Assembly: GCA_903885445.1 (NCBI GenBank)
Contig: CAISIO010000036.1
Span: forward strand, 37,485-101,484
Length of the DNA stretch: 64,000 nucleotides
Direction: 5' to 3'
Source of the DNA: Candidatus Staskawiczbacteria bacterium
Lineage (GTDB): Bacteria > Patescibacteriota > Minisyncoccia > Minisyncoccales > Staskawiczbacteraceae
The notes under the pieces were generated by a model, which saw only the letters and a list, made by a program, of their open reading frames with translations, searched no databases and was not told where the DNA came from. This document shows, in pieces, positions 4,247 to 63,083 of this stretch. Positions within the stretch are counted from its first letter, which is position 1. Each line of letters starts with the position of its first letter. Position numbers and translations under genes: made by a program.

Positions 4247-6175
4247 ATGGATACGGCAATTACTGGAAAAAAATACTCCGCCAAACCCGCTGATTATATA
4301 CGAGCCATATCTCTACCGCTAATTCTGGCGGTTTTATTTGTCGCGCAAAACCATTTTTTTAATGTTTGGCTGGGACTCTATTCAAAAACATATTCTGTCA
4401 GATTGTCACTTGTCACGTTTGCGTTAGGAGTTGTTTTCTACGGCCCGGCGTTGCTTTTCAAAAAAAGATATTCTTATGTATATCTTTTTATTATTTCATT
4501 TATAATTTCTTTCGGATTTTGCGCCGAATTTTTGTATTACCAGTATGGACAAAATTTCCTTCAAGCTTCGGCGCTTAGATATATAGGAGAGGCAGGAAGC
4601 CTGGTTGGAACAATAAAAACAATGCTTTCGCCAGAGTTGCTATTATTTATCGCGAATCTCGCGGTGGTTCTGGCGGCGTATGTTTTTGGCAGAAAAAAAA
4701 CTGACGCCAAGTTTATTTTGCCGGGCTGGGAAAGAATAATTATCATTTTGGCAATGATTGCCATTGTTTTCTTTGGATATAAATATCTTTTATATACAGA
4801 AAAAAAAGAGTGGGGAAGCACCAGCCGGCTTTACACAGATGTTTACGATCTAAAGGCGCTGGTAGGTAAAATGGGAATTATGAATTTTTTTCTGGAGGAC
4901 ACTTTTAAATATATTTTGCGCGCCAATTTGGTAACTGAAAAAGATAAAGATTTTTTAAAAACTTTCGCGGGAAAAAAACCGGCGCAAATAGCCGAAGGCA
5001 AATTTTTTGGCGTTAATAAAAATAAAAATCTTATAATTATCCAAGTTGAATCATTGGAAAATGCGGTTATTAACCGGGAAATTTACGGACAGGAAATTAC
5101 TCCAAGCTTAAATCAATTGGCGAGGCATGGCTTGTATTTTAACAATTTTTACGCCCAGGTCGGGCCGGGAAACACCGCCGACACGGAATTTTCCACAATG
5201 AATTCTTTGTATCCGTTGCCAAACAGCGTTGCATTCATCGACTATGCTAAAAATACTTACAAGGCGCTGCCACAACTGCTTATAGACAACGGGTACAAGA
5301 CTTATTCTTTACACGGTGACGTGCCGACTTTTTGGAATCGCTCAAATATTTATCCCGGGCTCGGCTACCAAAAAACATTTGCCCTGAGCGATTACACCGT
5401 AACCAGGTCTGTGGGCAAGGGGCCGTCTGATTTGGGTGATGAGGATTTATTTTCGCAATCATTAGCAAGGTTGGAAAGCTTTAAGCAGCCGTTTATGGCA
5501 ACGCTTATTACAATGAGCTCCCATACTCCGTTTATTTTGCCAGACGATCTGCAGACCTTGAATCTTCCGGCTGAAACCAACCTAACACAACTGCAATGGG
5601 AATATTTGCAGGCGGTTCATTATACCGACAAAGCAATTGGCGAGTTTATAGACGGATTAAAACAAAACGGATTATATGATAATTCTTTAATAGTTATTTG
5701 GGGCGACCACGGAAGTTATACAAAAATATCTGAATTGCTAAATCAAGAAAATAAAATCCCGAGATTAGCCGATCAACAGGTGCCGATGATAATTTTAAAT
5801 TCCGGAGTAGAAAATCAGACAATAAATGAGCCTGCCAGCCAATTGGACGTTTATCCGACAATTGCGAATCTTTTGGGAATTGTTTCGCCAAAAACTGTTT
5901 TGGGCCAGGATTTATTAAATACAAAAACTCCGGTTGAAACTAATTTTAAAATCGTCTCCGGCGGAATAGACGCAATTTTAACTTCAAATTTAGCGTATCA
6001 AGCAAGCGAAGACGGCGTTTTTTCGCATGGCTCGTGCGAGTCGGTGCCCGGCGCGAAACTATTGCCCATAACCGATTGTCAAAATATCTACACCGAGCAA
6101 TCAAACAATATTAAAGCTTCAAATATAATAGTCCGCGGAAATCTGCTAAACTTTTATTCCGCCAATCTGAAGTAA
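4247..6175 (+). CDS. LtaS-family membrane sulfatase / phosphoglycerol transferase
   Basis: N-terminal multi-TM region followed by extracellular alkaline-phosphatase-superfamily sulfatase domain (LIIIQVESLEN ... GPGNTADTEFS ... WGDHG). Confidence 0.85.
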   Translation: MDTAITGKKYSAKPADYIRAISLPLILAVLFVAQNHFFNVWLGLYSKTYSVRLSLVTFALGVVFYGPALLFKKRYSYVYLFIISFIISFGFCAEFLYYQYGQNFLQASALRYIGEAGSLVGTIKTMLSPELLLFIANLAVVLAAYVFGRKKTDAKFILPGWERIIIILAMIAIVFFGYKYLLYTEKKEWGSTSRLYTDVYDLKALVGKMGIMNFFLEDTFKYILRANLVTEKDKDFLKTFAGKKPAQIAEGKFFGVNKNKNLIIIQVESLENAVINREIYGQEITPSLNQLARHGLYFNNFYAQVGPGNTADTEFSTMNSLYPLPNSVAFIDYAKNTYKALPQLLIDNGYKTYSLHGDVPTFWNRSNIYPGLGYQKTFALSDYTVTRSVGKGPSDLGDEDLFSQSLARLESFKQPFMATLITMSSHTPFILPDDLQTLNLPAETNLTQLQWEYLQAVHYTDKAIGEFIDGLKQNGLYDNSLIVIWGDHGSYTKISELLNQENKIPRLADQQVPMIILNSGVENQTINEPASQLDVYPTIANLLGIVSPKTVLGQDLLNTKTPVETNFKIVSGGIDAILTSNLAYQASEDGVFSHGSCESVPGAKLLPITDCQNIYTEQSNNIKASNIIVRGNLLNFYSANLK

Positions 6176-6255
6176 AAAAACAGGGTTTCGCTTCCCTAAG
6201 CAGAAACCCATCTGGGCCGTCACGTAAAAACAAAAAACGAAAGTATCGGCGCCGT

Positions 6256-6393
6256 CTAGCCAATCGGCAGTTTGAGGAACACCAGGAAGGCAACCACCAC
6301 TGCGACGACTCCCACGGCCACCAACACATGACGCCAGTCGATGGGAGTTCGCACAAGCGCGCCTTTCTGGTTGGCTCTCTTCTTGCTTGACAT
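6256..6393 (-). CDS. Small single-TM peptide (45 aa), GC-rich micro-island
   Basis: ATG with AAAGGAAG SD. MSSKKRANQKGALVRTPIDWRHVLVAVGVVAVVVAFLVFLKLPIG. Followed by GGGTTTC..GAAACCC hairpin + T-run (6191-6225). Preferred over overlapping track ORF 6111..6482 which looks like GC-driven junk. Confidence 0.4.
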   Translation of the reverse strand: MSSKKRANQKGALVRTPIDWRHVLVAVGVVAVVVAFLVFLKLPIG

Positions 6394-6423
6394 ACTCTTC
6401 CTTTCTCTGCCCATGTGAATGTA

Positions 6424-6666
6424 CTACGCCGTCGCCGCGGCCCTTGCGAGCAATCCGCCCGAGAAATCACGGCGATGCCCACCCTTGAGCCTGATGGTAA
6501 CCATCTCGGGATGAGCCTTTGGCGGTTCGGTCAGCTCTTCTTCTTCAAGAAGCTGTAGCCCGACAACCTCGAATGGGCCTTCGCCATGTTGCTCGGCCAA
6601 CTCGATTGGGGCGTCTTCGTCCCACACCACCTTCTCGCGGAGACTGAAACCGTATTTCACTGCCAT
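6424..6666 (-). CDS. Hypothetical small acidic protein (GC-rich island)
   Basis: 80-aa ORF with SD cagAAGGAGcgc 4 nt before ATG. Own TTGACT-16-TATTAT promoter at 6710-6737 (minus strand). Confidence 0.45.
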   Translation of the reverse strand: MAVKYGFSLREKVVWDEDAPIELAEQHGEGPFEVVGLQLLEEEELTEPPKAHPEMVTIRLKGGHRRDFSGGLLARAAATA

Positions 6667-6809
6667 TTTTGCGCTCCTTCTGTTAATTGCACAATTCCAG
6701 GTTAAACTTATAATACCTAAATTTACATATAAGTCAACTTATTAGCGCACAAAAAAAGCCACCGAAGTGACCTGTGGGGAAATAAATATTTTAATGAACT
6801 CGGATGCGC

Positions 6810-7052
6810 CTACTTCCTACGAAGGCGCCTCACCCTCTGCGGCGTGGCCTTGATCAAGGCTTCCCAGACGCTTGCAGGAAGCCCAATCGTTGGAGTGCTA
6901 CCCTCTACGAGTAGCCATTCCACCGGACCAACTTTCACCGAGAGCAACTTGTACGTTCCCGGCTCTATTGGGACTGTTGTCGGCTGAGCCTCCAATTTCC
7001 CGTCATCCGGGACCACCTCGACATTTATCTTTACCAACACTTCCACGCGCAT
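6810..7052 (-). CDS. Hypothetical small protein (GC-rich island)
   Basis: Start moved to internal ATG at 7052 preceded by AAGTAAGGAGCTGACA SD. Own TTGACT-17-TATTAT promoter upstream and hairpin+T-run terminator downstream. Confidence 0.45.
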   Translation of the reverse strand: MRVEVLVKINVEVVPDDGKLEAQPTTVPIEPGTYKLLSVKVGPVEWLLVEGSTPTIGLPASVWEALIKATPQRVRRLRRK

Positions 7053-7216
7053 TGTCAGCTCCTTACTTTTCCATTCGGTGATGATCGAAGCACATATATA
7101 TAATAACAATTTATTTTAGAAAAGTCAATAGCAAAAAAGCAGCTTACTGCAAAAAAAACAGACCACCGGCGTGCATGGTCCCATGAAGACGAGAATGTGA
7201 ATGTGCGATTGCCCGG

Positions 7217-7459
7217 CTAGTTCCGGTCGAGACTGACGTGCCCCTCGGCCTCTAGCGCATCCCAGGTTTCGGACAAAAGACCCGACTTACCATCGGCGTC
7301 GATGAGCCAGTCTTTGCCGGTCGTCGCGTCTTTCCACGGCGCCAGCCCTATGCGTTCACCAACCTGAAGACTCTTGGCTGTGACATGAGCAATGTCTCCC
7401 TTGCGGAGCACTGCCGGAATAACCAGCCTAAGCGTCCGTGCTTTCACCGTTGCAACCAT
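7217..7459 (-). CDS. Hypothetical small protein, possible AbrB/MazE-like fold (GC-rich island)
   Basis: 80-aa ORF, SD cagAAGGAGcgc. Segment RLVIPAVLRKGDIAHV resembles swapped-hairpin DNA-binding proteins (weak). Own TTGACT-17-TATTAT promoter and GACCA..TGGTC+T-run terminator. Confidence 0.45.
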   Translation of the reverse strand: MVATVKARTLRLVIPAVLRKGDIAHVTAKSLQVGERIGLAPWKDATTGKDWLIDADGKSGLLSETWDALEAEGHVSLDRN

Positions 7460-7725
7460 CTCCGCGCTCCTTCTGGTTGCGATTGCGGAAAATATTTCTT
7501 AACTATTATAATACCTTAAAGACTTCAAAAGTCAACGCTTTGTACAAAAAAACGGGGGCCGCGTGGCGACCCCTTGGAAAAAACGAAACTGGATTGGTTG
7601 TTAATGTGCTCGCTAGGCCGCCAATGCTAATCATAATTTAATAATTCGCTTGACATTTGTAAAAATTGTAATAGATTATTAATATAAGAAGTTTTAAGGT
7701 AAAAACAGGTAAAATAAGAAAAATC

Positions 7726-9276
7726 ATGAAAAACACATCTAAAGTAGGCCTCATATTATTGGCGACAGTCATTTGCCTTTGTTTCGGAGGCGCGGTTTTC
7801 GCGCAGAGCGTACCGCAAATACAAACAAACTCCGCGACAAATATTCAGAACAGTTCGGCAACGCTTAATGCCTATATAGCAAACACCGGAAATTATGGCA
7901 GTACAACTGTCTATTTTCAGTGGGGGACAACCGTATCATACGGATACCAAAGCGCTGTTATAAATCAAAATTATCCCGGGAATTTAAGCCAGCCGATAAC
8001 CGGCCTGGCTTCAGGCTCGACATACCACTTCAGAGCAGTCGCGCAAAATAATTACGGCACTGTTTTTGGCCAGGACATGACGTTCACTGCAGGCCAGTCA
8101 TACGGTAATTCTCTTGCCGCAAACGCCGGTCCGGATATATATTTAGCCCTTGGCCAAACCGCAACGCTGCAAGGCTCTGGCTACGACCCAAATGGAAGCG
8201 CTCTGAATTATTTTTGGTCATGCAACGGCGGCACATTGTCAAACCCCAATATCGCGCAACCGGTATATACGTCGACCATTTTTGCAAACTACAGCAGTCA
8301 AGCAGCATACACCTGCACGCTTACGGTTACAAACAATTATGGAAATTCAAATTCCGACAGCATGACGGTTAATATAAATACCGTTCAAACGGGTGGAGTC
8401 ACTATTCAAACAAATTCGGCGACAAATGTTTCAAATTATCAGGCAACGCTAAATGGCAATCTCGCAGTTCCTTATTTTGGCAGTTCCAATTATGTTTATT
8501 TCCAATACGGGACAACAACCAGCTATGGCACTCAGACCAATCAACAATCTTTAAGTAATTCCGGTTCGTTCAGCCGAAACATCGCCGGATTAAGCGCAGG
8601 AACAACTTATCATTTCAGAGCGGTAGCGCAAGGAAATTATGGAACAGTTTACGGCCAAGATATGACTTTTTACAGCTCTGGCACCGGAACCGGATATTAC
8701 GGCAACGGAATTCTTACTGTAAACAAAAAAGCTATCGACCTGACCTCGGGAGGATTAATCTGGGCGACATCAATAAATGCCAATCCCTCGGATGTTTTAA
8801 CTTTTGCTATAACTTTGCAGGCAAACGGCCAGGACATCCACAACGTTATAGTTAAAGATATTTTACCGGCCAATTTAATTTACAAAGGAAATCTAACCGT
8901 AAACACAAACACTAATTTTGGCGGAGACATAACTTCCGGAGTCAATATTGGAACAGTCTACTCCAGCCAGCCAATTATTGTTTCATACCAGGCGCAGGTC
9001 GCATCAGCCGGGAATTTCAGCTATGGGACCGTCACAATGAACAACAATGCAACTATTACAAGCACGGAATCGGGCGCGCAAACCGCGACCGCAAATGTTG
9101 TTGTTACAAGAACATTAGTTCAGGGAGCGGCAACGGTTTCAACCGGCCTGACAAATAACTTTTTAGCAGACTCATTTTTCCTGCCATTATTGATAATCAT
9201 CGCCAGCTTATGGTTGTATTTCTCTGGTGCAGCATTCAGTTTTGGTAAAAAAATAAAGTCTCTTATAAAAAAATAA
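7726..9276 (+). CDS. Cell-surface protein with three fibronectin-III-like repeats and a DUF11-like domain, C-terminal TM anchor
   Basis: Signal peptide, three ~110-aa repeats each containing ...YFQ[WY]GTT.SYG ... TYHFRAVAQ.NYGTV.GQDMTF, then C-terminal hydrophobic anchor. Confidence 0.6.
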   Translation: MKNTSKVGLILLATVICLCFGGAVFAQSVPQIQTNSATNIQNSSATLNAYIANTGNYGSTTVYFQWGTTVSYGYQSAVINQNYPGNLSQPITGLASGSTYHFRAVAQNNYGTVFGQDMTFTAGQSYGNSLAANAGPDIYLALGQTATLQGSGYDPNGSALNYFWSCNGGTLSNPNIAQPVYTSTIFANYSSQAAYTCTLTVTNNYGNSNSDSMTVNINTVQTGGVTIQTNSATNVSNYQATLNGNLAVPYFGSSNYVYFQYGTTTSYGTQTNQQSLSNSGSFSRNIAGLSAGTTYHFRAVAQGNYGTVYGQDMTFYSSGTGTGYYGNGILTVNKKAIDLTSGGLIWATSINANPSDVLTFAITLQANGQDIHNVIVKDILPANLIYKGNLTVNTNTNFGGDITSGVNIGTVYSSQPIIVSYQAQVASAGNFSYGTVTMNNNATITSTESGAQTATANVVVTRTLVQGAATVSTGLTNNFLADSFFLPLLIIIASLWLYFSGAAFSFGKKIKSLIKK

Positions 9277-15357: not shown

Positions 15358-15852
15358 CTAATTTGTTTTTGAGAGGGCTTTTGCCATATCCAGCCATTTT
15401 GGCGCCCGTGGCTTACTTTTGTATTTTGCAGATGATTTATGGATTTCTATAAGAGAGCATATTTCATTCTTTTTCCAGCCCGCCAGCGCAAGCCCTTTGT
15501 TTTTGTAGATTATTTCCACGCCTTTTGCCCAAAGCTCAAAATCTTTCTTTTTATTTTCCGCCAAACAGTTTTTCTTAAAAAAGGGGACTACGGTCTCGGC
15601 AATGTCGCTGATTTTCTGCACAGAGAACCTTGCCTGGTCTTTTGATAAAGTAATTTCTCCACAACCGATTTCTTTTTTTATTTTCTCTAAAATTTTAATA
15701 TCATTTCTGGGCCCTGTAACAATAAATTGCGCCTTCCACCTGTAGTAAGTGGGGGAGTTGGTTCTTTCATGCCGTGTGTCTTTGCGAAACTGCAAATCAA
15801 AACATCCGTCATTGTTCACCAATTTTGCCACGCTAAATTTTTCTGCCGCCAT
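15358..15852 (-). CDS. Free-standing LAGLIDADG-family homing endonuclease
   Basis: FSVAKLVNNDGCFDLQFRK resembles the LAGLIDADG motif (L[AV]GxxDxDG.F) in a ~160-aa single-motif protein. Own TTGACA-17-TAAAAT promoter upstream. Confidence 0.6.
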   Translation of the reverse strand: MAAEKFSVAKLVNNDGCFDLQFRKDTRHERTNSPTYYRWKAQFIVTGPRNDIKILEKIKKEIGCGEITLSKDQARFSVQKISDIAETVVPFFKKNCLAENKKKDFELWAKGVEIIYKNKGLALAGWKKNEICSLIEIHKSSAKYKSKPRAPKWLDMAKALSKTN

Positions 15853-18767: not shown

Positions 18768-18795
18768 AAAAAGAGGGAATTGAGCCCTCTTTTTT

Positions 18796-18819
18796 ATCGG
18801 CTCAACGCGTTGACCCGAT
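18796..18819. other. Candidate dif-like tyrosine-recombinase core site (9-6-9: ATCGGCTCA-ACGCGT-TGACCCGAT)
   Basis: Near-perfect inverted arms around a 6-bp spacer, 13 nt from the xer gene stop, at the point where gene orientation flips. Confidence 0.4.
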
Positions 18820-18831
18820 GGATTGTTATGA

Positions 18832-19803
18832 TTATTTTTTATCAGGGTCGGAGTGGAATTGGTGGTGGATATCGCGGAGGCGCTTGTTGGTTACGTGCGT
18901 GTAGATTTGAGTGGTGGCGATGTTTGAGTGGCCTAGAAATTCTTGGATGCTGCGCAAGTCAACGCCTTGGTTTAACAAATCTGTCGCGTAGCTGTGGCGC
19001 AAAGTATGCGGAGTGGTGAAGATTGGCACGCCTGAAAGCAGAGCGTATTTTTTTACCATTCTTTCTATAGATCGCGGAGTAAGACGGGAGTCGGTGTTAT
19101 CGGCCTTATCGCGGAAGTTTATAAACAAGGCTTTTTGGTTGGCGTGCTTAACATCATTTCTTATTTCTAAATATTTTCTGATAAAGCCCAACGCGCGTTC
19201 AGAAAAATAAACAACTCGAGGTTTTCCGCCTTTGCCAATAACACCAAGCTCCATATCTTTTTTATCTTTTAAACTGTTAAACTGCTCAAGATTTAAAGAA
19301 ACCAGTTCGGCGATGCGAAGCCCTGTTGAGAAAAACGCCTCCAAAATAGCCCGGTCGCGGGTGCTTATATCGTCTTTTGGCTCTATGGAAGATAAAAGCT
19401 TACCAATCTGCTCTAAACTAAGGAATTTTATGCTTTTTAAGCCCCTGTCAGGCTTTGAGAGCGATATTTTGTCAGGGGGCAGTGAAAGTACGTCTTTTGC
19501 CACAAAGTAGCCTAAAAAGGCCCTTAAGGCGATTAAATAGTAGTTTTGGGTGCCTTTAGACAGCAATTTGCCGGTAGTTGGGCTAGGCGTGCGGGAAAGG
19601 TATAAACGGTAGGTCCAAACATGGTCAGAGGTCAGCTGATGGGGGAGTAAAGAGGATAATTTGTCCTGGTCTAGCCAATGAAAAAATTTCCCCAGATAAT
19701 TTTTATAATTCTCCTGAGTATTTTTTCTCAAACCTTTTTCAACTTCGCAATAATCTAAAAAATCTTGCAGATGTTCTTTTATTGGTTTTGTTGAGTTTTG
19801 CAT
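18832..19803 (-). CDS. Tyrosine site-specific recombinase, XerC/XerD family
   Basis: 323 aa. N-terminal core-binding domain, C-terminal catalytic domain with R...HTLRHSYAT...LGHSNIATTQIYTHV (R-H-R-Y signature region). Confidence 0.85.
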   Translation of the reverse strand: MQNSTKPIKEHLQDFLDYCEVEKGLRKNTQENYKNYLGKFFHWLDQDKLSSLLPHQLTSDHVWTYRLYLSRTPSPTTGKLLSKGTQNYYLIALRAFLGYFVAKDVLSLPPDKISLSKPDRGLKSIKFLSLEQIGKLLSSIEPKDDISTRDRAILEAFFSTGLRIAELVSLNLEQFNSLKDKKDMELGVIGKGGKPRVVYFSERALGFIRKYLEIRNDVKHANQKALFINFRDKADNTDSRLTPRSIERMVKKYALLSGVPIFTTPHTLRHSYATDLLNQGVDLRSIQEFLGHSNIATTQIYTHVTNKRLRDIHHQFHSDPDKK

Positions 19804-37726: not shown

Positions 37727-38221
37727 TTAAAATTGTGATAACTTTTTAATTATTTGGTTAATTATATTCATATCTTGCCCGAAAGATGTTTTTGACGAGC
37801 CAAGAATATTTAAAATCTCAAATAAATCCTCACCCTCGGGCATATTGGAAATAGACAAAGTCATAGACGTTTCAGTAAGCGAGCTCATCAACTCTTGCGT
37901 TAAACGCATTTCCTGCTCTATCTGTTGGTGCGCTGATCTGATTTGTCGCACAATAAAACTGGCGAATTCATTCTCTTTTTCTTCGGCAATTTTTTCTGAT
38001 AAATATTTATAAGCTTTTTTGGTTGGGACCCTCCCCGCTGAAGTGTGGGGCTGTTCTATAAATCCCTGCTTGGCTAAAACCTGCAAATCATTTCTTATTG
38101 TTGCTCCACAAACATCCAAATCCGTAACCTTTTTTAAGGCCTTAGAGCTCACAGGTTCAGCTGTGCTTATATATTCTTTAACCAGAAATTCCAAAAGTTT
38201 TTCTTGTCTGTTTGTAATCAT
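37727..38221 (-). CDS. hrcA: HrcA-like heat-inducible repressor (short, 164 aa: winged-helix N-terminal domain only)
   Basis: ITNRQEKLLEFLVKEYISTAEPVSSKAL...ATIRNDLQVLAKQGFIEQPHTSAGRVPT matches HrcA N-terminus. Operon position upstream of grpE. Confidence 0.7.
   Translation of the reverse strand: MITNRQEKLLEFLVKEYISTAEPVSSKALKKVTDLDVCGATIRNDLQVLAKQGFIEQPHTSAGRVPTKKAYKYLSEKIAEEKENEFASFIVRQIRSAHQQIEQEMRLTQELMSSLTETSMTLSISNMPEGEDLFEILNILGSSKTSFGQDMNIINQIIKKLSQF
37943..37956 (+). repeat. 14-bp motif copy E (TTTGTCGCACAATA) inside hrcA coding sequence
   Basis: Encodes ...FIVRQIR... on the minus strand. Confidence 0.7.
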
Positions 38222-38243: not shown

Positions 38244-38270
38244 TTATCACTCGCCCTTGTCAAGTGCTAA
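38244..38270. promoter_or_regulatory. CIRCE-like inverted repeat TTATCACTC-N9-AAGTGCTAA
   Basis: Matches CIRCE consensus TTAGCACTC-N9-GAGTGCTAA at 7+8 of 9 positions per half. 23 nt upstream of hrcA start. Confidence 0.5.
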
Positions 38271-38434
38271 AACGCTTTTCTGTCTAAAAATTGTAAAAAA
38301 AGAAGCGATCCAGCTCGCGTGTGCGTGTGGACCGCTATTACTGCGGATGATCGCGTGCATGCCTAATGGCGCGCACATATTCTCTCCTTTGTGCCTTGTA
38401 GCACGGTTTCAGACTCTGGCAGGATTTGCCAGTC

Positions 38435-38521
38435 CTATTTCACTCTTCGCTTTGTGTACTTCTTGCGGCGAAGCCTGTTTCGTCTCGGCGCTCCTGCAAG
38501 TCGGCGAACCATCCTTCTCAT
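38435..38521 (-). CDS. Very basic 28-aa peptide (MRRMVRRLAGAPRRNRLRRKKYTKRRVK)
   Basis: GGAGGAAGAAACG-ATG SD. TTGACT-17-TATTAT promoter ~65 nt upstream. GC-rich. Coding status unproven. Confidence 0.3.
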   Translation of the reverse strand: MRRMVRRLAGAPRRNRLRRKKYTKRRVK

Positions 38522-38716
38522 CGTTTCTTCCTCCGAAAGGTGGCAGAAATGTGTCGCGAACAACAAAAACGAAGTATTATTTGATAATAATACCGCTGGC
38601 AAAAAAACTAGTCAATTGTTTATAACTTTTTGTAAAGAAAAAAGGCGACCCGGGCACCCTCACGGTGAGGATGTCCAGGTCGCCCTAAAGATTGGGCTTG
38701 CAGCCCGACGTTCAGG

Positions 38717-38878
38717 CTACGCGCCGGACTGGTCGGCCAGGCGGGTGATCTTCTTGACCATGCCCATGTTGTCGGCGGCGTCGGCGGCAGGCGGATCGTT
38801 GTTGCGCCGGGTAGTCGCCTGATTGTTGGCATCCAGCAGATCCGCGCCCAGGGTACGATGCGTGCGTCGTCGGTTCAT
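38717..38878 (-). CDS. Small hypothetical protein (53 aa), GC-rich micro-island
   Basis: AGGAGA SD. TTGACA-17-TACGAT promoter with ~90-nt leader. Strong terminator GGCGACC..GGGTCGCC + T-run at 38640-38700. Confidence 0.4.
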   Translation of the reverse strand: MNRRRTHRTLGADLLDANNQATTRRNNDPPAADAADNMGMVKKITRLADQSGA

Positions 38879-39041
38879 GGTCGGTGTCTCCTAAGGAGCC
38901 GAAAGGTGCAGTGATGCGCCTAACCTTACACAGGTCAGTGTGTCTACACAATATAGGCACACGCGCATCGGTTGTTTATATTATCGTAGCTCCAACAAAA
39001 AACCGTGTCAAGAGTTAATAAAATTAACACAATGGCTGGAA

Positions 39042-45183: not shown

Positions 45184-45578
45184 ATAATACAAAAAAAATC
45201 GGCCACGGGAGGGGGCATTCTCCCGTGGCCTTACTGCACGGCCGAGGGACGACCGCATGCTTGCCCAGCGTAACGGCTGGGCTGACGTTTGAAAGGAACT
45301 GCTGGCAGTACTATGCCAAGCAAAGATGGTAAATAAAACAGTTGACGGGTGAGTTCCGGCGGTAATGCGTTGCGGGAATGTATTCCTGGTGCGCGGGTCC
45401 GCATTCCTCCGCTCGCCGCGCTGTGCCCGGAAACATAAGATTCCCACGGAGACCTTGCATTCGCCGCTTCACGATGCCGGGGGTTGGATTCTGCCCGTAG
45501 TGCGTGACCGATTGGGGGCCATCGTTGCCCATTTTGACCACATGGGTCCGTATCGGCACCCGCCAACTGTCTCTCAAC
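45184..45578 (-). ncRNA. Candidate GC-rich structured RNA (~395 nt), class unknown
   Basis: Minus-strand TTGACG-17-TAGATT promoter (45586-45614). Transcript ends at GGCCACGGGAG..CTCCCGTGGCC + T8 terminator (45190-45221). Many local and long-range helices (UUCCGG/CCGGAA enclosing GCGCGG/CCGCGC; UGGCA/UGCCA; CCCAGC/GCUGGG). All overlapping ORFs in 4 frames look like GC-driven junk. Confidence 0.4.
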
Positions 45579-45636
45579 TAATTCAAATCTACTACAACAA
45601 AAAAGCGCCGTCAAGCGCATCTTTGTTTTAATTTTT

Positions 45637-57800: not shown

Positions 57801-57804
57801 TGAG

Positions 57805-57824
57805 TTATTTTACTCTTTATCTAT
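57805..57824. repeat. Conserved promoter module copy R1 (revcomp ATAGATAAAGAGTAAAATAA)
   Basis: Same 20-mer found at 60345 and 62462, each immediately upstream of a minus-strand AT-rich enzyme gene. Confidence 0.7.
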
Positions 57825-57901
57825 ATTTTTGCAAAAAAAATCCCCAACGCGCTTTGATCTGCGTGGGGACATGAGACATTCAGTTGCACCGGGTGGCGCA
57901 A

Positions 57902-58405
57902 CTACTTGACGACGTATTCCTCGAAGTTCTCCTTGGGCGGATTGGGCTTGGTCTTGAACGGCGCCCAGTTGAACTTCGAACTTGAAGCGTTGTACTCCCT
58001 GGCCAGGTTGTTCCGTTGGGAAGCAACAGCGATGAGATCTTCCCTCGCTTGCTGACGCTCCCTATTGAACTGGACCTGGATGTGGGGTGGCCACTTGGAC
58101 CTGTCGTCGCCGTAGCTCTTGTACTGCTCGTCCACCGACGAGCCCCGCTTCTCGAACATGACGATGTCCTGGTCCATCTTCTTTATGCGGGCGTTCTGGT
58201 CGATGAACCATTCGTACTTCTCGAGCGCGGCCTTGGGGCCGAACTCCTGCTGGGCGACCACCGCCGCCTCGCCGAACCAGCCGAAGCCGTATCCGATGAC
58301 GCCCACGACCACGGAAAACGCCACCACGAAAAGGATGACCTTCCAGGTGATGGACCAAGGACCCTTCTCCGCCGCTTGCTGATACCCATTCCAGTTGTTG
58401 CTCAT
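57902..58405 (-). CDS. Hypothetical membrane-anchored protein (GC-rich)
   Basis: 167-aa ORF with N-terminal TM. Terminator CCCCAACGC..GCGTGGGG + T-run at 57839-57875. Confidence 0.4.
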   Translation of the reverse strand: MSNNWNGYQQAAEKGPWSITWKVILFVVAFSVVVGVIGYGFGWFGEAAVVAQQEFGPKAALEKYEWFIDQNARIKKMDQDIVMFEKRGSSVDEQYKSYGDDRSKWPPHIQVQFNRERQQAREDLIAVASQRNNLAREYNASSSKFNWAPFKTKPNPPKENFEEYVVK

Positions 58406-58456
58406 GCGATTCTCCTGTTCCCGAGGTTAATTGTTCCGTTCTGGTGCCCGTTCGTC

Positions 58457-59155
58457 CTACTTCTTCTCCGCCTCGACCTTGAACTTGCCCTCCTTGATTC
58501 TCAGTTGCTCCTCCTGCTGGAGTTGCCAGTCGTGAGCGGCCTTGCTCATGTTGTACATACCCGTCACCTCGTCTTGTGGGTTGACGAGATCAATAGGGTA
58601 ATCGGTGATCAGGTAACCAATGCCGCCCGCCGTACCATACTGATGGTATCTGTGCATGGCGTCGAACCAGTAAATGTAGTTGTCCGATTCTCCACGGGTT
58701 CCGTCGGGGCCGATGGCCTCGTCTGTGAGAAAACCCTTATAGCTCGGTAGGCTGCTGGTGACCACGTTTTGACCATCAGCAACATAGTGCTTCGGTTCCA
58801 ACCGCTTGTTGGAACTGGTGACCTTGCAAGCCACCGGCATCCGCTTGATGATTTTGCCGTCCAGGGCCATCAAGTGAATCCACATCACCTTGGTGGGGTC
58901 ATTGGTCACCGCAATGCGGTCGTTGATGTTCTGCTGTTCGACCGTGTTGCCTCTGGAGTTCAGCGGTACTTTGACTGGAGAAGCTTGCTTGGCACCACTT
59001 GCCGATTCTTCGATCCTCCGATTATCGCACCCGCTCTGGCCTTGCCCTACCATCAGGCAGAGCACTCCGAACACAACCATTATTGTCGCCTTGCGCATGT
59101 TTGCGCTCCTTTCCAACTTCTCACGAGATTGTATGGACAAACCCCGCCATTTCAA
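58457..59155 (-). CDS. Hypothetical lipoprotein-like protein (GC-rich)
   Basis: Probable true start at internal MRKATIMVVFGVLCLMVGQGQSGC (signal + Cys). Confidence 0.4.
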   Translation of the reverse strand: MKWRGLSIQSREKLERSANMRKATIMVVFGVLCLMVGQGQSGCDNRRIEESASGAKQASPVKVPLNSRGNTVEQQNINDRIAVTNDPTKVMWIHLMALDGKIIKRMPVACKVTSSNKRLEPKHYVADGQNVVTSSLPSYKGFLTDEAIGPDGTRGESDNYIYWFDAMHRYHQYGTAGGIGYLITDYPIDLVNPQDEVTGMYNMSKAAHDWQLQQEEQLRIKEGKFKVEAEKK

Positions 59156-59326
59156 TGGCGAGATAAAACGAGGGGCTAGGACTTTTCTGCTAAAATGTCT
59201 CCTTTCAGATTTACAACGAACCGATTAGACAGCCACAAGCTGTCTAACTTACACTTTGGATTATAGCACTATTTATTATTAATGTCAACAGACGTAAAAC
59301 CAAAAAGCCGAGATAAAATCTCGGCG

Positions 59327-59340
59327 ATTGTCGCACAACA
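59327..59340 (+). repeat. 14-bp motif copy G (ATTGTCGCACAACA)
   Basis: Between stop of 59349..59870 and its GCCGAGAT..ATCTCGGC terminator. Confidence 0.7.
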
Positions 59341-59348
59341 AGATTATT

Positions 59349-59870
59349 TTATAAATTATATTCCCAGAAGGGTTGCCATTTGAAGGGAGTTTTTACGCAA
59401 TCTTCAAGAGTTTTGCCGGTCAGAGTATCTAATCCGAATTGAGTTGCGCGGTGGCCGACAACTAAAATTATCTTATCGGGATATTTTTGTTTCAATTCTT
59501 TAAAAAATTCTTGAACCCTTGTTATCGCCTGCTCATAGCTCTCGCCTTTTGGGAAAGGCATTTTTATTCTTTCTGCTTTCATTTTATCAACAATATTTTT
59601 GGGTTTGCCGTTAAAATCTCCGTAATTTAATTCGCGCAATCTTTTATCAATGATAACAGGAATTTTTTCTCTAAATGCAATTTTAACAGTATCTATTGCC
59701 CTAATTAAATCCGAGCAACAAATAATATCAAATTTTATATCTCCCAAAGCATTTTCCAGCTTTTTTGATTGTTGCACGCCCAACGGAGATAACTCAATAT
59801 TGTTCCAGCCGGAAGCTATGTCTTTTTCGTTATCAGTTGTTGTTGAATGGGTCGCAAAATATATCTTCAT
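59349..59870 (-). CDS. Histidine-phosphatase (phosphoglycerate-mutase-like) superfamily protein
   Basis: 173-aa, fold-level resemblance only (catalytic RHG replaced by THS at N-terminus), so assignment is tentative. Confidence 0.45.
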   Translation of the reverse strand: MKIYFATHSTTTDNEKDIASGWNNIELSPLGVQQSKKLENALGDIKFDIICCSDLIRAIDTVKIAFREKIPVIIDKRLRELNYGDFNGKPKNIVDKMKAERIKMPFPKGESYEQAITRVQEFFKELKQKYPDKIILVVGHRATQFGLDTLTGKTLEDCVKTPFKWQPFWEYNL

Positions 59871-60325
59871 AATGAATTTTCTTTGACCAGCTCTATCCTG
59901 GGCTCGCCGTCGCCGAAATAATTTTCTTTTTGCTCTTTTATTACAAAACCAAATGAAAGATAAATTTTCAGCGCGCCACTGTTTTCGGGATGCGTTACCA
60001 GCTCAATTCTTTTCATATTTTTCAGTTCTTCCAGCAAAAGCCGGGTTGCCTCCCGCCCAATCCCCTGTTTTTGAAATTGCGGGTCAATGGCAAGTCCCGA
60101 GATATAAGCAACGCCATCGGGCTTTATCTCGTAAGATGCGTCTCCGACAATTTTGCCATCACGCAAAATAAGATAAACCACTGCGTTATTTTTATTAAAA
60201 ACTTCTTCCCACCCTTTTTCTGTAATCTCAGCAGAATAGTTTTTGATGCCAATCAGCTTCTTTTCAATCTCTATCAAAACCGGAATGTCTTTAATTGTCG
60301 CTTTTTTAAAAATTATCTCCGCCAT
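59867..60325 (-). CDS. GNAT-family N-acetyltransferase
   Basis: Motif A ...QFQKQGIGREATRLLL... Confidence 0.8.
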   Translation of the reverse strand: MAEIIFKKATIKDIPVLIEIEKKLIGIKNYSAEITEKGWEEVFNKNNAVVYLILRDGKIVGDASYEIKPDGVAYISGLAIDPQFQKQGIGREATRLLLEELKNMKRIELVTHPENSGALKIYLSFGFVIKEQKENYFGDGEPRIELVKENSL

Positions 60326-60344
60326 AAAAATCTTTATTGTTCTG

Positions 60345-60406
60345 TTATTTTACTCTTTATCTATTTCTTTTCAATCACCGCCATCGGGTCAACGAACTGA
60401 CCCGAT
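60345..60406. repeat. Promoter module + 24-bp palindrome, copy R2/P2 (ATCGGGTCA-ACGAAC-TGACCCGAT at 60383-60406)
   Basis: ~62 bp near-identical to 62462-62523. Confidence 0.75.
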
Positions 60407-60503
60407 AAAATTTGCAAGAAAAATGGCCCGGCAACCAGCATCCTTGCTGGTCATCGGGCCTTTGTGTCGCGCTCGCTATATGCGAGCAAAACCTGTTAGA
60501 GGA

Positions 60504-60878
60504 CTAACCCTCCTCATCGTCCTCGTCGAGGGGTCTGTCTTTCTTGCCTTCATCCTCATCGTCATCTTCCTCGTCCTCGTCATCGTCGGGGAAGAGACTC
60601 CAGTCTTCCTCTTCCTCGTCGTCGTCATCGTCAAGGTTCTGATCCAGGAGGTTCCCCTCGGCGAGCTCTCGGGCGGTCGCGGCGAGCCACTCACGGAGTT
60701 CTTCCGGCGTGACGCCCATCTCCTTGGCAGCACGGAGGAAAAGCTCTTTGTCGAGTTCCTCGGTACTGTCGTTCAAGGGAAGATCTTCGCCAGGGTATTT
60801 CTCCGGCTTCAGCTCCTTCTCTTTCCAGTTCCACTCGTCCACCGCCAGGCCAATCGTCTCAATCCTTGCCTTGTCCAC
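60504..60878 (-). CDS. Hypothetical highly acidic protein (GC-rich), paralog of 61192..61536
   Basis: GTG start with AAGGAGA SD. Shares ...VDEWNWKEKE...LFLRAAKEMGVTPEELREW... with neighbour. Poly-D/E tail. Terminator at 60420-60470. Confidence 0.45.
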   Translation of the reverse strand: MDKARIETIGLAVDEWNWKEKELKPEKYPGEDLPLNDSTEELDKELFLRAAKEMGVTPEELREWLAATARELAEGNLLDQNLDDDDDEEEEDWSLFPDDDEDEEDDDEDEGKKDRPLDEDDEEG

Positions 60879-61191
60879 GTCAGTCTCCTTTTCTCGGCGC
60901 TACTTGTCCTTGTGTTATCGCCAACAGTTGCTCTGGCGCTTCAGCGGCGGTTAAGGCAACTGTTTTCGTACTATGAATATAATATCATATATAGAAATTA
61001 CGTCAATATTAAAATCAAACAAAAAGTACGGTAGCCTAAGAGCACGATTTCGCTATCTTAATGCGGATTAAATTAGTCCGCATCGCGGTTTTCTGCTAAG
61101 CCTTAATTCGCGCAAAAAAATCCCCGAGCACGCGATGATCTGCGTGTCCGGGGTCCCTTCTCGCCTTGCTGAAGCGAGAACTTACGACAAT

Positions 61192-61536
61192 TCATGCTCC
61201 CGCGCCTCGTCGGTCAGCTCTCTTCCCACACTGTTGGTCGGAGCGAGCGCGGCAAGGATGTCCGTCTGTGCTGAGCATATCAGCTATGCGCAGTGGACTC
61301 ACGTTTGGAGAAGGCGCTCCGAGCGGTCCGCACAGATCCTCCTCGAACCAATTGTGTAGTTCGTCTGGTTCGATGCTCATTTCCCGGGCCGCGCGGAGAA
61401 ACAATTTCCTGTTTTCCCCCTCAGTGTTGACGGTCAGTGCAGGAATGGCATTGGGAAAGTCTTTTCCCACTTGCTCCTTATCGTTCCATTCTTTCACCAG
61501 CCTTTCAATGTCGCCGAAACGCACATGTGTCATCAT
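61192..61536 (-). CDS. Hypothetical protein (GC-rich), paralog of 60504..60878
   Basis: AAGGAGA SD. ...VKEWNDKEQV...LFLRAAREMSIEPDELHNW... Confidence 0.45.
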   Translation of the reverse strand: MMTHVRFGDIERLVKEWNDKEQVGKDFPNAIPALTVNTEGENRKLFLRAAREMSIEPDELHNWFEEDLCGPLGAPSPNVSPLRIADMLSTDGHPCRARSDQQCGKRADRRGAGA

Positions 61537-61655
61537 GATTGTCTCCTTTTTCGGCCTATGCTCGTCGCACGTTATTTATATATAAAATACCACATATAAA
61601 AATGTGTGTCAATAAAAATAAAAGCAAACAAAAAGCCGATATTGAAGTGTCGGCT

Positions 61656-61669
61656 TTTGTCGCACAATA
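61656..61669 (+). repeat. 14-bp motif copy H (TTTGTCGCACAATA)
   Basis: Between stop of HIT gene (61673) and its GCCGACA..TCGGC terminator. Confidence 0.75.
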
Positions 61670-61672
61670 TAA

Positions 61673-62128
61673 TTATTTTAGCAAAGCTATGATTTTATTT
61701 TTTTCTTCCTCGGATAAATCTTTGTATAACGGGTCTTTGAATTTTTCAGCTTTTTCTTGGAGCTCGTCCTGAAAATCTCTTGGCAAAAGATGAAAATGCA
61801 CGTGGCCAACATGCGTTTGGCTGTTTTTTACGTAGGGTTTAAAGTTTTGCCTGATATCGCACCCCGATGATAATTTTTCCAGTATCTTTCCCTGAAACTC
61901 CACAAGCAAATCAAAAATTTCGCTTTGTTCTTCTTTTGTCAGCTGGGAAATACTTGTGACATGCCTTTTAGGAATAATAAGTGTGTGCCCCGCAACCAAT
62001 CTTGGATTGCTCAAAATAACATAAGCATTCTCTGTCTCTTTAATAGTCCTGTCTTCCTTGTATATATTGCAAAACGGACAATCCATAATTTTATTTTCCA
62101 TTATTGATATACTTTGATAATTTTTCAA
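61673..62128 (-). CDS. HIT-family nucleotide hydrolase/transferase
   Basis: Histidine triad HVGHVHFHLLPR, ...HTLIIPKRHV... Confidence 0.8.
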   Translation of the reverse strand: MKNYQSISIMENKIMDCPFCNIYKEDRTIKETENAYVILSNPRLVAGHTLIIPKRHVTSISQLTKEEQSEIFDLLVEFQGKILEKLSSGCDIRQNFKPYVKNSQTHVGHVHFHLLPRDFQDELQEKAEKFKDPLYKDLSEEEKNKIIALLK

Positions 62129-62456
62129 TCATATCAGGCGAATCATCGTATTCTATAAAATTCTCGGTTAATTTGCCGATGGATTTTGAATATTTGCTTC
62201 CCGTCTTGAAAATGCAGACAACCGGTATGTTAAAAACATCAGCCCAGCCCAATTCAATGCCTTGCCCCGTTGAAGAAAATGATATTTCAGCCACCACAAG
62301 GTTGCTATCTTTAATTATATCTTTTGTGATAACGTCTTTGCCATTCTCGTGAGGAAAAGATATTTCATGCTGTTTATTTATCTCCGAATTTCTAAGCGGA
62401 ATATATATCTGATTTTCAAAATCAAAACTGCTTGAGTGGCTAACAAATATTTTCAT
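62091..62456 (-). CDS. Nucleoside 2-deoxyribosyltransferase-like protein
   Basis: 121-aa flavodoxin-like fold pattern MKIFVSHSS...VVAEIS...GQGIELGWADVFNIPVV. Confidence 0.5.
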   Translation of the reverse strand: MKIFVSHSSSFDFENQIYIPLRNSEINKQHEISFPHENGKDVITKDIIKDSNLVVAEISFSSTGQGIELGWADVFNIPVVCIFKTGSKYSKSIGKLTENFIEYDDSPDMIEKLSKYINNGK

Positions 62457-62461
62457 ATTGC

Positions 62462-62523
62462 TTATTTTACTCTTTATCTATTTCTTTTCAACCGATGCCA
62501 TCGGGTCAACGAACTGACCCGAT
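62462..62523. repeat. Promoter module + 24-bp palindrome, copy R3/P3 (ATCGGGTCA-ACGAAC-TGACCCGAT at 62500-62523)
   Basis: Near-identical to 60345-60406. Additional nested palindrome CCGATGCCATCGG. Confidence 0.75.
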
Positions 62524-62596
62524 AAAACAGGCAAAAAAAACAGCTTCACTCCAAGTGAGCCTTGATGTGAAGCCTGCGTCGCAACGAAGCGTCCGC

Positions 62597-62965
62597 CTAG
62601 AGGGCGAGCTTCTTGCACAATCGTGCGACATCACTGCTGACCTGCAATGCCCTGGCGCAGAACTCCTCTGGGCTTTTGCCCTCCTTGGCGGCCAGCTTTG
62701 CGATTACATCCTGCCTAAGGGAGTGAGTTTTGGCGATGACCTTCCCGGGTACGTCTGGCGAAACGCCAAGCGTAACGGCAATCTGGTCCAGGGTCGGCAT
62801 GGCACCGCCGGCTACCAGAACCTTCAAGGTCAAGTATCCTACGACGGCCCGGGACTGCTTGCCCCGATCCACTGGCGGACTCGCGGCCGGCTTAGCCTCG
62901 GTTTCGACTTCTGTTCCATTGGGCATGTTGCACCATTCCTTTTCTGTGGCCAATTGTTGCGACAC
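62597..62965 (-). CDS. Hypothetical small protein with possible HTH (GC-rich)
   Basis: ...PTLDQIAVTLGVSPDVPGKVIAK resembles a helix-turn-helix. Terminator GCTTCAC..GTGAAGC + T8. Confidence 0.4.
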   Translation of the reverse strand: MSQQLATEKEWCNMPNGTEVETEAKPAASPPVDRGKQSRAVVGYLTLKVLVAGGAMPTLDQIAVTLGVSPDVPGKVIAKTHSLRQDVIAKLAAKEGKSPEEFCARALQVSSDVARLCKKLAL

Positions 62966-63083
62966 CTATATTTAATATAATCTCTGTAGGTTTTCTGTCA
63001 ACATGAAAAAATCTCAAATGAGTAGAATTACGCGAATAATTTTACAAAAAAATGCCCCTTAATTTTTATCAAGGGGCTGAAAG

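Follow-up and report, generated by a model that had tools for sequence, protein, structure and literature searches.

A GC-rich islet of probable moron-like small-protein cassettes in a Candidatus Staskawiczbacteria genome

How does a cluster of small, GC-rich (guanine- and cytosine-rich) genes come to lie between two host genes of a bacterium of the Candidate Phyla Radiation (CPR), and what kind of element is it? The locus that raises this question lies in a 64,000-nucleotide stretch of a Candidatus Staskawiczbacteria genome (contig CAISIO010000036.1), hereafter the window. A 1.47-kb island on the minus strand (6176..7645) separates the stop codon of a gene for an LtaS-like protein (6175) from the promoter of a gene for a PKD-domain surface protein (TTGACA at 7650). 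An earlier description of the same DNA from its letters alone (the sequence-only reading) had seen three tandem, self-contained small-gene units here, and had proposed that they were horizontally acquired small-protein cassettes. Our analysis indicates that the island is probably a lineage-specific insertion of horizontally acquired DNA, made up of three autonomous, moron-like cassettes that would express orphan small proteins. In kind, it is something already known, a horizontally acquired orphan-gene islet with a moron-like organization, and not a new kind of system.

The island is built from three back-to-back minus-strand units, each composed of a promoter, a Shine–Dalgarno (SD) site, an 80-codon open reading frame (ORF) and a hairpin/T-run terminator; all elements listed by the sequence-only reading could be located. 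Unit 1 opens with promoter P1 (TTGACT-16-TATTAT, 7535-7508), which like P2 and P3 is a consensus match, followed by an AAGGAG SD (7472-7467) that lies 7 nt before the ATG of ORF1 (80 aa, 7459-7217) and by terminator T1, a hairpin with T8 (7150..7181). In unit 2, promoter P2 has a 17-nt spacer and a TG before its -10 element (TTGACT-17-TATTAT, 7128-7100), the AAGGAG SD (7064-7059) stands 6 nt before the ATG of ORF2 (80 aa, 7052-6810), and terminator T2 again combines a hairpin with a T-run (6749..6773). Unit 3 repeats the arrangement with promoter P3 (TTGACT-16-TATTAT, 6737-6710), an AAGGAG SD (6679-6674) 7 nt before the ATG and ORF3 (80 aa, 6666-6424), and adds a second gene, ORF4 (45 aa, 6393-6256), which has an AGGAAG site of its own (6402-6397). 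ORF4 starts 30 nt past the ORF3 stop with no terminator between the two, so it is predicted to be co-transcribed with ORF3. Terminator T3 (6174..6198) closes this transcript a few bases from the convergent stop codon of the LtaS-like gene. Delimited more narrowly, T1, T2 and T3 cover 7181-7160, 6773-6756 and 6198-6181.

Transcription of each cassette would thus begin at a near-consensus, sigma-70-type promoter of its own and end at an intrinsic terminator, and translation would start from a strong SD site. Because each would carry its own promoter, SD and terminator, expression should not depend on the flanking host genes, which run in the opposite direction, and should be insulated from them. 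From unit 3, a single mRNA would yield two products, an acidic soluble protein (ORF3) and a membrane peptide (ORF4). Presumably, these predicted signals are actually used.

The three promoters form a class of their own within the window. The combination TTGACT-16/17-TATTAT occurs four times in the 64 kb, against 0.02 occurrences expected from shuffles, and the fourth copy (TTGACT-17-TATTAT, 38615-38587) lies inside another GC-rich islet, so that all copies are found in such islets. The sequence-only reading had also noted shared ribosome-binding contexts. Units 1 and 3 do have cagAAGGAGcgc in common, and share a stretch of 20 nt around the ribosome-binding site, but unit 2 reads ATTGACTT, not GTTGACTT.

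Upstream of P1 lies a further intrinsic terminator on the minus strand (7547..7573, more narrowly 7573-7555), with an 8-bp stem containing 7 G-C pairs and a following T-run. Together with T3, it bounds the island with terminators on both sides, as the sequence-only reading had it. We call it the orphan terminator, since there is no gene upstream of it on the minus strand. Before it stand CACATTAACA and TTTCGTTTTTT, two motifs that recur after the stops of ORF1/ORF3 and ORF4, and the terminator, like the stretch before it, could be left over from a lost unit; it could also be an insulator. A related observation concerns the motif CACATT[CA]ACA (10-11 nt, minus strand), which is found at 7599-7609, 7196-7206 and 6414-6424, that is, in the orphan stretch and 1-12 nt past the stops of ORF1 and ORF3; both this recurrence and the sharing of TTTCGTTTTTT are statistically within chance.

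The surroundings of the island are those of an ordinary chromosome. On its left, the LtaS-like gene (4247-6175, plus strand) encodes a 642-aa membrane protein of the Sulfatase family (Pfam PF00884, E 1e-46) and is preceded by an S4/pseudouridine synthase gene. On its right, the PKD-domain gene (7726-9276, plus strand) is followed by tRNA-Ala. The neighbours of the island are housekeeping genes (pseudouridine synthase, sulfatase/LtaS-like protein, tRNA-Ala, S41 peptidase, ribosomal protein L9, CTP synthase and UppS). A search with the LtaS-like protein, with one genome per species, returned eleven Candidatus Staskawiczbacteria/Magasanikbacteria metagenome-assembled genomes (MAGs) at 67-74% identity, a result that assigns the window to this CPR lineage. 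The gene order rsuA-ltaS-PKD gene is kept in Staskawiczbacteria MAGs. In three relatives (L013, L016 and L011), the gap between the LtaS-like and PKD genes is only 100, 50 and 57 bp, respectively, with the PKD promoter inside it, and in none of the relatives examined is the LtaS-like gene followed by a GC-rich tract. The window, for its part, has kept both the stop codon of the LtaS-like gene and the promoter of the PKD gene (TTGACA at 7650) intact. Given that three relatives have these two genes side by side (50-100 bp apart), the island is, on the evidence of these gene orders, a lineage-specific insertion. The sequence-only reading had suggested looking for the island in related genomes, and this is the answer that the comparison gives: L013, L016 and L011 lack it, with their flanks adjacent.

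The composition of the island also sets it apart. Its ORFs have a GC content of 0.56-0.59, versus 0.41 for the window and about 0.40-0.44 for the flanking genes, and at third codon positions they reach 0.64-0.72, versus about 0.40. Across codon positions 1/2/3, the four ORFs all have about 0.65/0.42/0.65 (0.65/0.46/0.64 for ORF1), compared with 0.44/0.35/0.40 in the flanking genes. The spacers between the ORFs contain only 36-47% GC, so the high GC is confined to the coding parts; the segment that the sequence-only reading called GC-rich as a whole is GC-rich in its genes alone. Codon usage and composition are foreign relative to the window. Absence from the same site in relatives, foreign composition and codon usage, and self-contained units all agree with the proposal of horizontally acquired small-protein cassettes.

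What do the cassettes encode? Searches against Pfam, PHROGs, PADLOC and NCBIfam gave no match for ORF1-4 (E <= 1-10 for Pfam, NCBIfam and PADLOC), and the profile searches that had been advised for the four peptides thus revealed no homology to a housekeeping family. In a word-indexed search of 5.8 billion protein clusters, ORF1, ORF2 and ORF3 each returned only themselves. Phage records yielded nothing for ORF1-3 (tblastn) or for the island DNA (blastn), and PDB sequence searches found nothing. A plus-strand six-frame Pfam check, which considered the ORFs as antisense or out-of-frame pieces of known genes, gave nothing either.

ORF2 is the best characterized of the four. A HMMER search of 1.84 billion representatives recovered one true homologue, P0008 (51% identity over the full length, E 2e-13), whose gene adjoins a DUF763 gene on a 2-kb ENA contig (ERZ1426829, 2076 nt). 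The statement that these proteins have no recognisable family therefore holds at the level of Pfam, PHROG, NCBIfam and PADLOC, but ORF2 does have this single uncharacterised homologue. A second HMMER match, to a 2021-aa repetitive Gram-positive surface protein, is a probable false positive. No relatives of the ORF2 family were found in JGI metagenomes, none of ORF1 or the ORF2 family in IMG/VR, and nothing for the island DNA or P0008 in plasmid records. ORF2 is basic (isoelectric point (pI) 9.6) and ends in the tail RVRRLRRK. An AlphaFold model from a two-sequence alignment with P0008 (predicted local distance difference test (pLDDT) 82, predicted template modelling score (pTM) 0.69) folds six strands into a small barrel, followed by a helix (residues 60-68) and a final strand. 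The best Foldseek matches are SH3 and bacterial SH3b-like domains, all of them weak (E >= 0.25 in PDB and >= 0.05 in BFVD, with template modelling (TM) scores of 0.4-0.5). ORF2 is thus modelled as a soluble small beta-barrel with a weak SH3-like resemblance.

The other products are described here from their sequences and, for ORF1, a single-sequence model. ORF1 (pI 6.7) is modelled as mostly beta with one C-terminal helix (pLDDT 52), and probably resembles ORF2. Motifs had led us to consider both as AbrB/MazE-like 'GD-box' barrels, an idea that received no support from Pfam or Foldseek. ORF3 is predicted to be an acidic, soluble 80-aa protein (pI 4.95, with 15 aspartate plus glutamate residues). 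ORF4 is extremely basic (pI 11.7), with a basic N terminus and one hydrophobic helix of about 20 residues (VLVAVGVVAVVVAFLVFLKL) near the C terminus, and is probably membrane-anchored. It fits the co-transcribed 45-aa peptide with a single transmembrane segment that had been proposed, and is the only one of the four that is plausibly membrane-inserted; ORF1-3 show no N-terminal hydrophobic segment by eye, no signal-peptide predictor having been run, and the membrane-peptide idea thus applies to ORF4 only. Export of ORF2 is not expected, because no such segment is seen by eye.

Several other origins for the island have to be weighed. The units could be genes for structured non-coding RNAs in which the ORFs are incidental. 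In favour of this, every unit is framed by a promoter and a terminator, RNA genes typically stand out by their high GC in AT-rich genomes, and the window itself has a candidate of that kind (45195-45590, minus strand). However, the three unit transcripts show no excess stability over shuffles (z = -0.75, -1.44 and -1.03), whereas the GC-rich non-coding tract at 45195-45590, taken as a control, folds with z = -4.0; an Rfam search of 6000-7800 gave no match at E <= 1. In every unit, a canonical SD is suitably spaced from an ATG, and the 80-codon frame that begins there is free of stops, for which the probability is 0.026-0.049 each given the composition. The GC pattern by codon position is of the coding type, and ORF2 is conserved as a protein with a confident fold. 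The units behave as mRNAs, unlike structured RNAs, and we consider the RNA-gene explanation highly improbable. The same applies to an artefact of assembly or binning in which foreign DNA was misjoined, an explanation that would suit the sharp difference in composition between island and flanks and the chimeric ends present in short contigs of the same project. Against it, six short ENA contigs, assembled separately from five other samples of that project, cover the island at 99.7-100% identity and reproduce its left junction (L002, L003 and L005), its right junction (L036) and its internal order (L001 and L004). Because separate assemblies carry both junctions and the internal order, the island is not an assembly error; moreover, neither the stop codon of the LtaS-like gene nor the promoter of the surface-protein gene was damaged by the insertion. 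Three of these six contigs end in unrelated sequence (L036 nt 418-561, L004 nt 1-174 and L005 nt 589-619), which raises the idea that foreign GC-rich DNA is actively captured at the island, with strain variants that carry foreign gene fragments in their cassettes. In L036, window positions 7687-7271 (100% identical) are joined, by a break inside ORF1, to the N terminus of KdpC (Pfam PF02669, E 2e-7). In L004, the C terminus of a 2-oxoacid:ferredoxin oxidoreductase beta subunit (PDB 5c4i_C, E 2e-8) is in frame with the last 16 codons of ORF2 (junction at window position 6864), and unit 3 follows. Both foreign pieces are GC-rich and in the same orientation. Yet L005 also ends in unrelated sequence, and it switches inside the LtaS-like gene, the 31 nt concerned being unlike any relative's LtaS-like protein, so that foreign ends look like a general trait of these short, low-coverage contigs; the foreign pieces come from ordinary housekeeping genes, whereas the resident ORFs are orphans; the L036 and L004 junctions have neither recombinase nor repeat; and the flag 'seen in 2 samples' is identical for every contig and so lends no independent support. 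On account of that third break, which is not in the island, and of the housekeeping nature of the foreign pieces, these ends are probably chimeric reads or assemblies at low coverage, and an active capture site is improbable.

Two further alternatives concern the genes themselves. The island could hold toxin-antitoxin or addiction modules, with ORF4 as a small membrane toxin and ORF3 as its protein partner, for example. The two genes are closely spaced and predicted to be co-transcribed, ORF4 is short and basic with a single hydrophobic helix, like membrane-active small toxins, and the island is accessory and acquired. But models of toxins, antitoxins and defence proteins gave no match at E <= 1, and only ORF3 and ORF4 are paired, ORF1 and ORF2 being monocistronic with their own terminators, unlike toxin-antitoxin pairs. 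No antisense-RNA promoter or overlapping gene was seen, none opposite ORF4 in a promoter scan, and a strong constitutive promoter for each unit is atypical of autoregulated toxin-antitoxin operons. We regard this assignment as unlikely, and the addiction, immunity or secreted-peptide functions suggested by the sequence-only reading are conceivable but gained no support, in view of the missing family matches, the monocistronic make-up of two of the three units and the want of an N-terminal hydrophobic segment, by eye, in ORF1-3. The other alternative, compatible with a horizontally acquired founder, is that ORF1-3 are tandem paralogues that arose by duplication of a promoter-gene-terminator unit and diverged very fast. 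Arrays of immunity or anti-defence genes do diverge very fast after duplication. ORF1-3 are identical in length (80 aa), the units have promoter idiosyncrasies in common (TTGACT / GGTATTATAA), and the ribosome-binding context is the same in units 1 and 3. ORF1 and ORF2 share the pattern W-L-x(5-8)-G-L-x4-W-[DE]-A-L in the same relative place (hhalign E 0.031) and a similar predicted order of strands and helix in their C-terminal halves, and the local alignment score of ORF1 with P0008 (z = 3.2) is reached by 1.2% of shuffles. These statistics are marginal and post hoc, however. BLASTP gives no alignment at E <= 100 for any pair among ORF1-3, ORF3 shows no signal against ORF1 or ORF2, and the unit DNAs do not align beyond the regulatory motifs. 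Common descent of the three genes is accordingly a possibility that we take seriously but doubt.

Some points also weigh against acquired, moron-like cassettes, the explanation that we prefer. No integrase, transposase, significant flanking repeat, donor or vector signature was found for the island. The nearest tyrosine recombinase gene (18832-19803) is 11 kb away, and its product, with Phage_integrase and N-terminal SAM-like domains, looks, judged from these domains, like a housekeeping XerC/D-type enzyme. Neither ORF1 nor ORF3 has a homologue among 5.8 billion clusters, and the ORF1 model is of low confidence (pLDDT 52); the case for these two as real proteins is made from composition, ORF length and translation signals. 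The promoter and terminator calls are consensus matches at the sequence level. The word 'moron' applies by analogy only, because the setting is a cellular chromosome and not a prophage. Flanking direct repeats were considered as att sites and rejected: an exact 11-nt repeat (TTTCGTTTTTT at 6232 and 7578) and the post-stop CACATTCACA are both at chance level for a 2-kb region, by our own estimate.

If the island is an acquired set of moron-like cassettes, what would its genes be for? The products presumably serve an accessory role. Most morons and islet orphans act in conflict or interaction, and such a role with phages, hosts or neighbours is our best guess here, although a weak one. The genomes of CPR bacteria are tiny and streamlined, and these bacteria rely on other cells. 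For this reason, genes that a CPR bacterium has acquired and expresses strongly are good candidates for mediators of interaction with a host, phage or competitor. The islet offers four compact, delimited small proteins, probably highly expressed to judge from their signals, that can be synthesised and tested directly. It also indicates that a CPR chromosome can harbour moron architecture that is not part of a prophage, and that one genome can do so more than once.

This last point follows from the other GC-rich segments of the window, all on the minus strand. The islet with the fourth TTGACT promoter (38250-39040) sits between a short HrcA-like gene and a gene for a major facilitator superfamily (MFS) transporter and comprises two or three promoter-SD-small ORF-terminator units. 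Its ORFs encode a 53-aa protein, an extremely basic 28-aa peptide (MRRMVRRLAGAPRRNRLRRKKYTKRRVK) and perhaps a third product, and the motif cacctttcgg is common to both 5' leaders. Further along (57900-63000), GC-rich orphan genes alternate with AT-rich, host-like genes. A GC-rich orphan segment at 57902-59155 holds ORFs of 167 and 232 aa, and genes at 60504-60878, 61192-61536 and probably 62597-62965 are paralogues (VKEWN...LFLRAAxEMG..PEEL). The orphan genes of these other segments carry strong predicted promoters. None of the genes has a convincing Pfam, NCBIfam or PADLOC match, and JGI metagenomes and IMG/VR contain no relatives of the 60.5/61.2-kb paralogue family, the only one for which they were searched. 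Across about 120 kb of sequence from the eleven relatives, no more than five short tracts have at least 53% GC, whatever they encode, and none lies downstream of the LtaS-like gene. Because GC-rich islets are recurrent in the window and scarce in relatives, they may be a property of this genome and not of one site. A stronger version of this idea, that the genome is repeatedly populated by 'cellular morons', ready-made GC-rich cassettes without phage, integrase or transposase context, with at least five islets within these 64 kb, strikes us as improbable. If it were true, some mechanism of delivery or capture could be acting, and the ENA contigs with foreign fragments would be snapshots of it.

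The window shows other features as well. A 79-nt repeat, 90% identical between its copies at 60345-60423 and 62462-62540 and partially present a third time at 57804-57834, consists of a palindrome (ATCGGGTCAACG..TGACCCGAT) and then a promoter and 5' leader (TTGAAA-16-TAAAAT) shared by three AT-rich operons. Each of these operons sits immediately downstream of GC-rich orphan genes, and a further copy of the palindrome stands at 18792-18821, beside the tyrosine recombinase gene. The HrcA-like gene next to the 38-kb islet (37727-38221, minus strand) encodes a protein of 164 aa, in which Pfam finds only the N-terminal winged-helix DNA-binding domain (residues 2-77) and a DeoR-like helix-turn-helix; typical HrcA proteins are much longer. 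The tract used above as a folding control (45195-45590, minus strand) is about 390 nt long with about 60% GC, and has a promoter (TTGACG...TAGATT, near 45614-45586) and a strong terminator, with no ribosome-binding site or ORF. Its minimum free energy is -161.6 kcal/mol, versus -137.7 +/- 5.9 kcal/mol for shuffles, a value reached by 0 of 100 of them, and the fold has a long-range closing helix. There is no Rfam match above threshold, and the tract is a candidate for a novel structured non-coding RNA. On the minus strand at 15358-15852, between uppS and uncharacterised genes, there is a free-standing LAGLIDADG homing-endonuclease gene (Pfam E 7e-15).

How, then, does the island compare with systems already described? 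Phage morons are reportedly to be credited to Juhala and Hendrix. A phage moron has its own promoter and terminator and a deviant GC content, and is something extra that related genomes lack (Cumby et al. 2012, PMC3594210). The island resembles it in having, at the sequence level, its own promoter and factor-independent terminator for each unit, generally with one gene per unit, in a GC content unlike that of its neighbours, in its position between genes that are adjacent in relatives, and in small products with a presumably accessory role. It differs in its setting, a CPR chromosome among housekeeping genes and not a prophage, with no phage genes nearby and no PHROG match, and in the tandem arrangement of its three units. 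ORFan genomic islets are likewise lineage-specific, deviate in composition and codon usage, contain short genes without homologues and leave their flanks undisrupted. Unlike them, the island has genes that each come with unusually complete and uniform expression signals, is GC-rich relative to its host, and is accompanied by several similar islets within 64 kb (38.3-39.0, 57.9-59.2, 60.5-61.5 and 62.6-63.0 kb).

Integron cassette arrays are also made up of compact, single-gene units in tandem, which encode unrelated small orphan proteins in one orientation. Their cassettes, however, are promoterless, end in attC and lie beside intI, whereas the units of the island have their own promoters and terminators, the sole inverted repeats after the ORFs are short terminator hairpins with T-runs, and the nearest tyrosine recombinase is 11 kb off. 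The arrays of orphan immunity genes known from interbacterial defence and polymorphic-toxin systems are similar in being tandem sets of small, fast-diverging, horizontally acquired genes with a GC content unlike that of the host. They differ from the island, which has no match to a known immunity family and no toxin or secretion-system context, and in which paralogy of ORF1-3 is doubtful. At the level of the single protein, SH3b domains are bacterial cell-wall-binding domains. The six-strand barrel of the ORF2 model bears a weak resemblance to SH3/SH3b-like barrels, and its top, weak Foldseek matches are to SH3 domains and to SH3b-like domains of endolysins and S-layer proteins; ORF2 departs from these in an extra C-terminal helix, a further strand and its basic tail.

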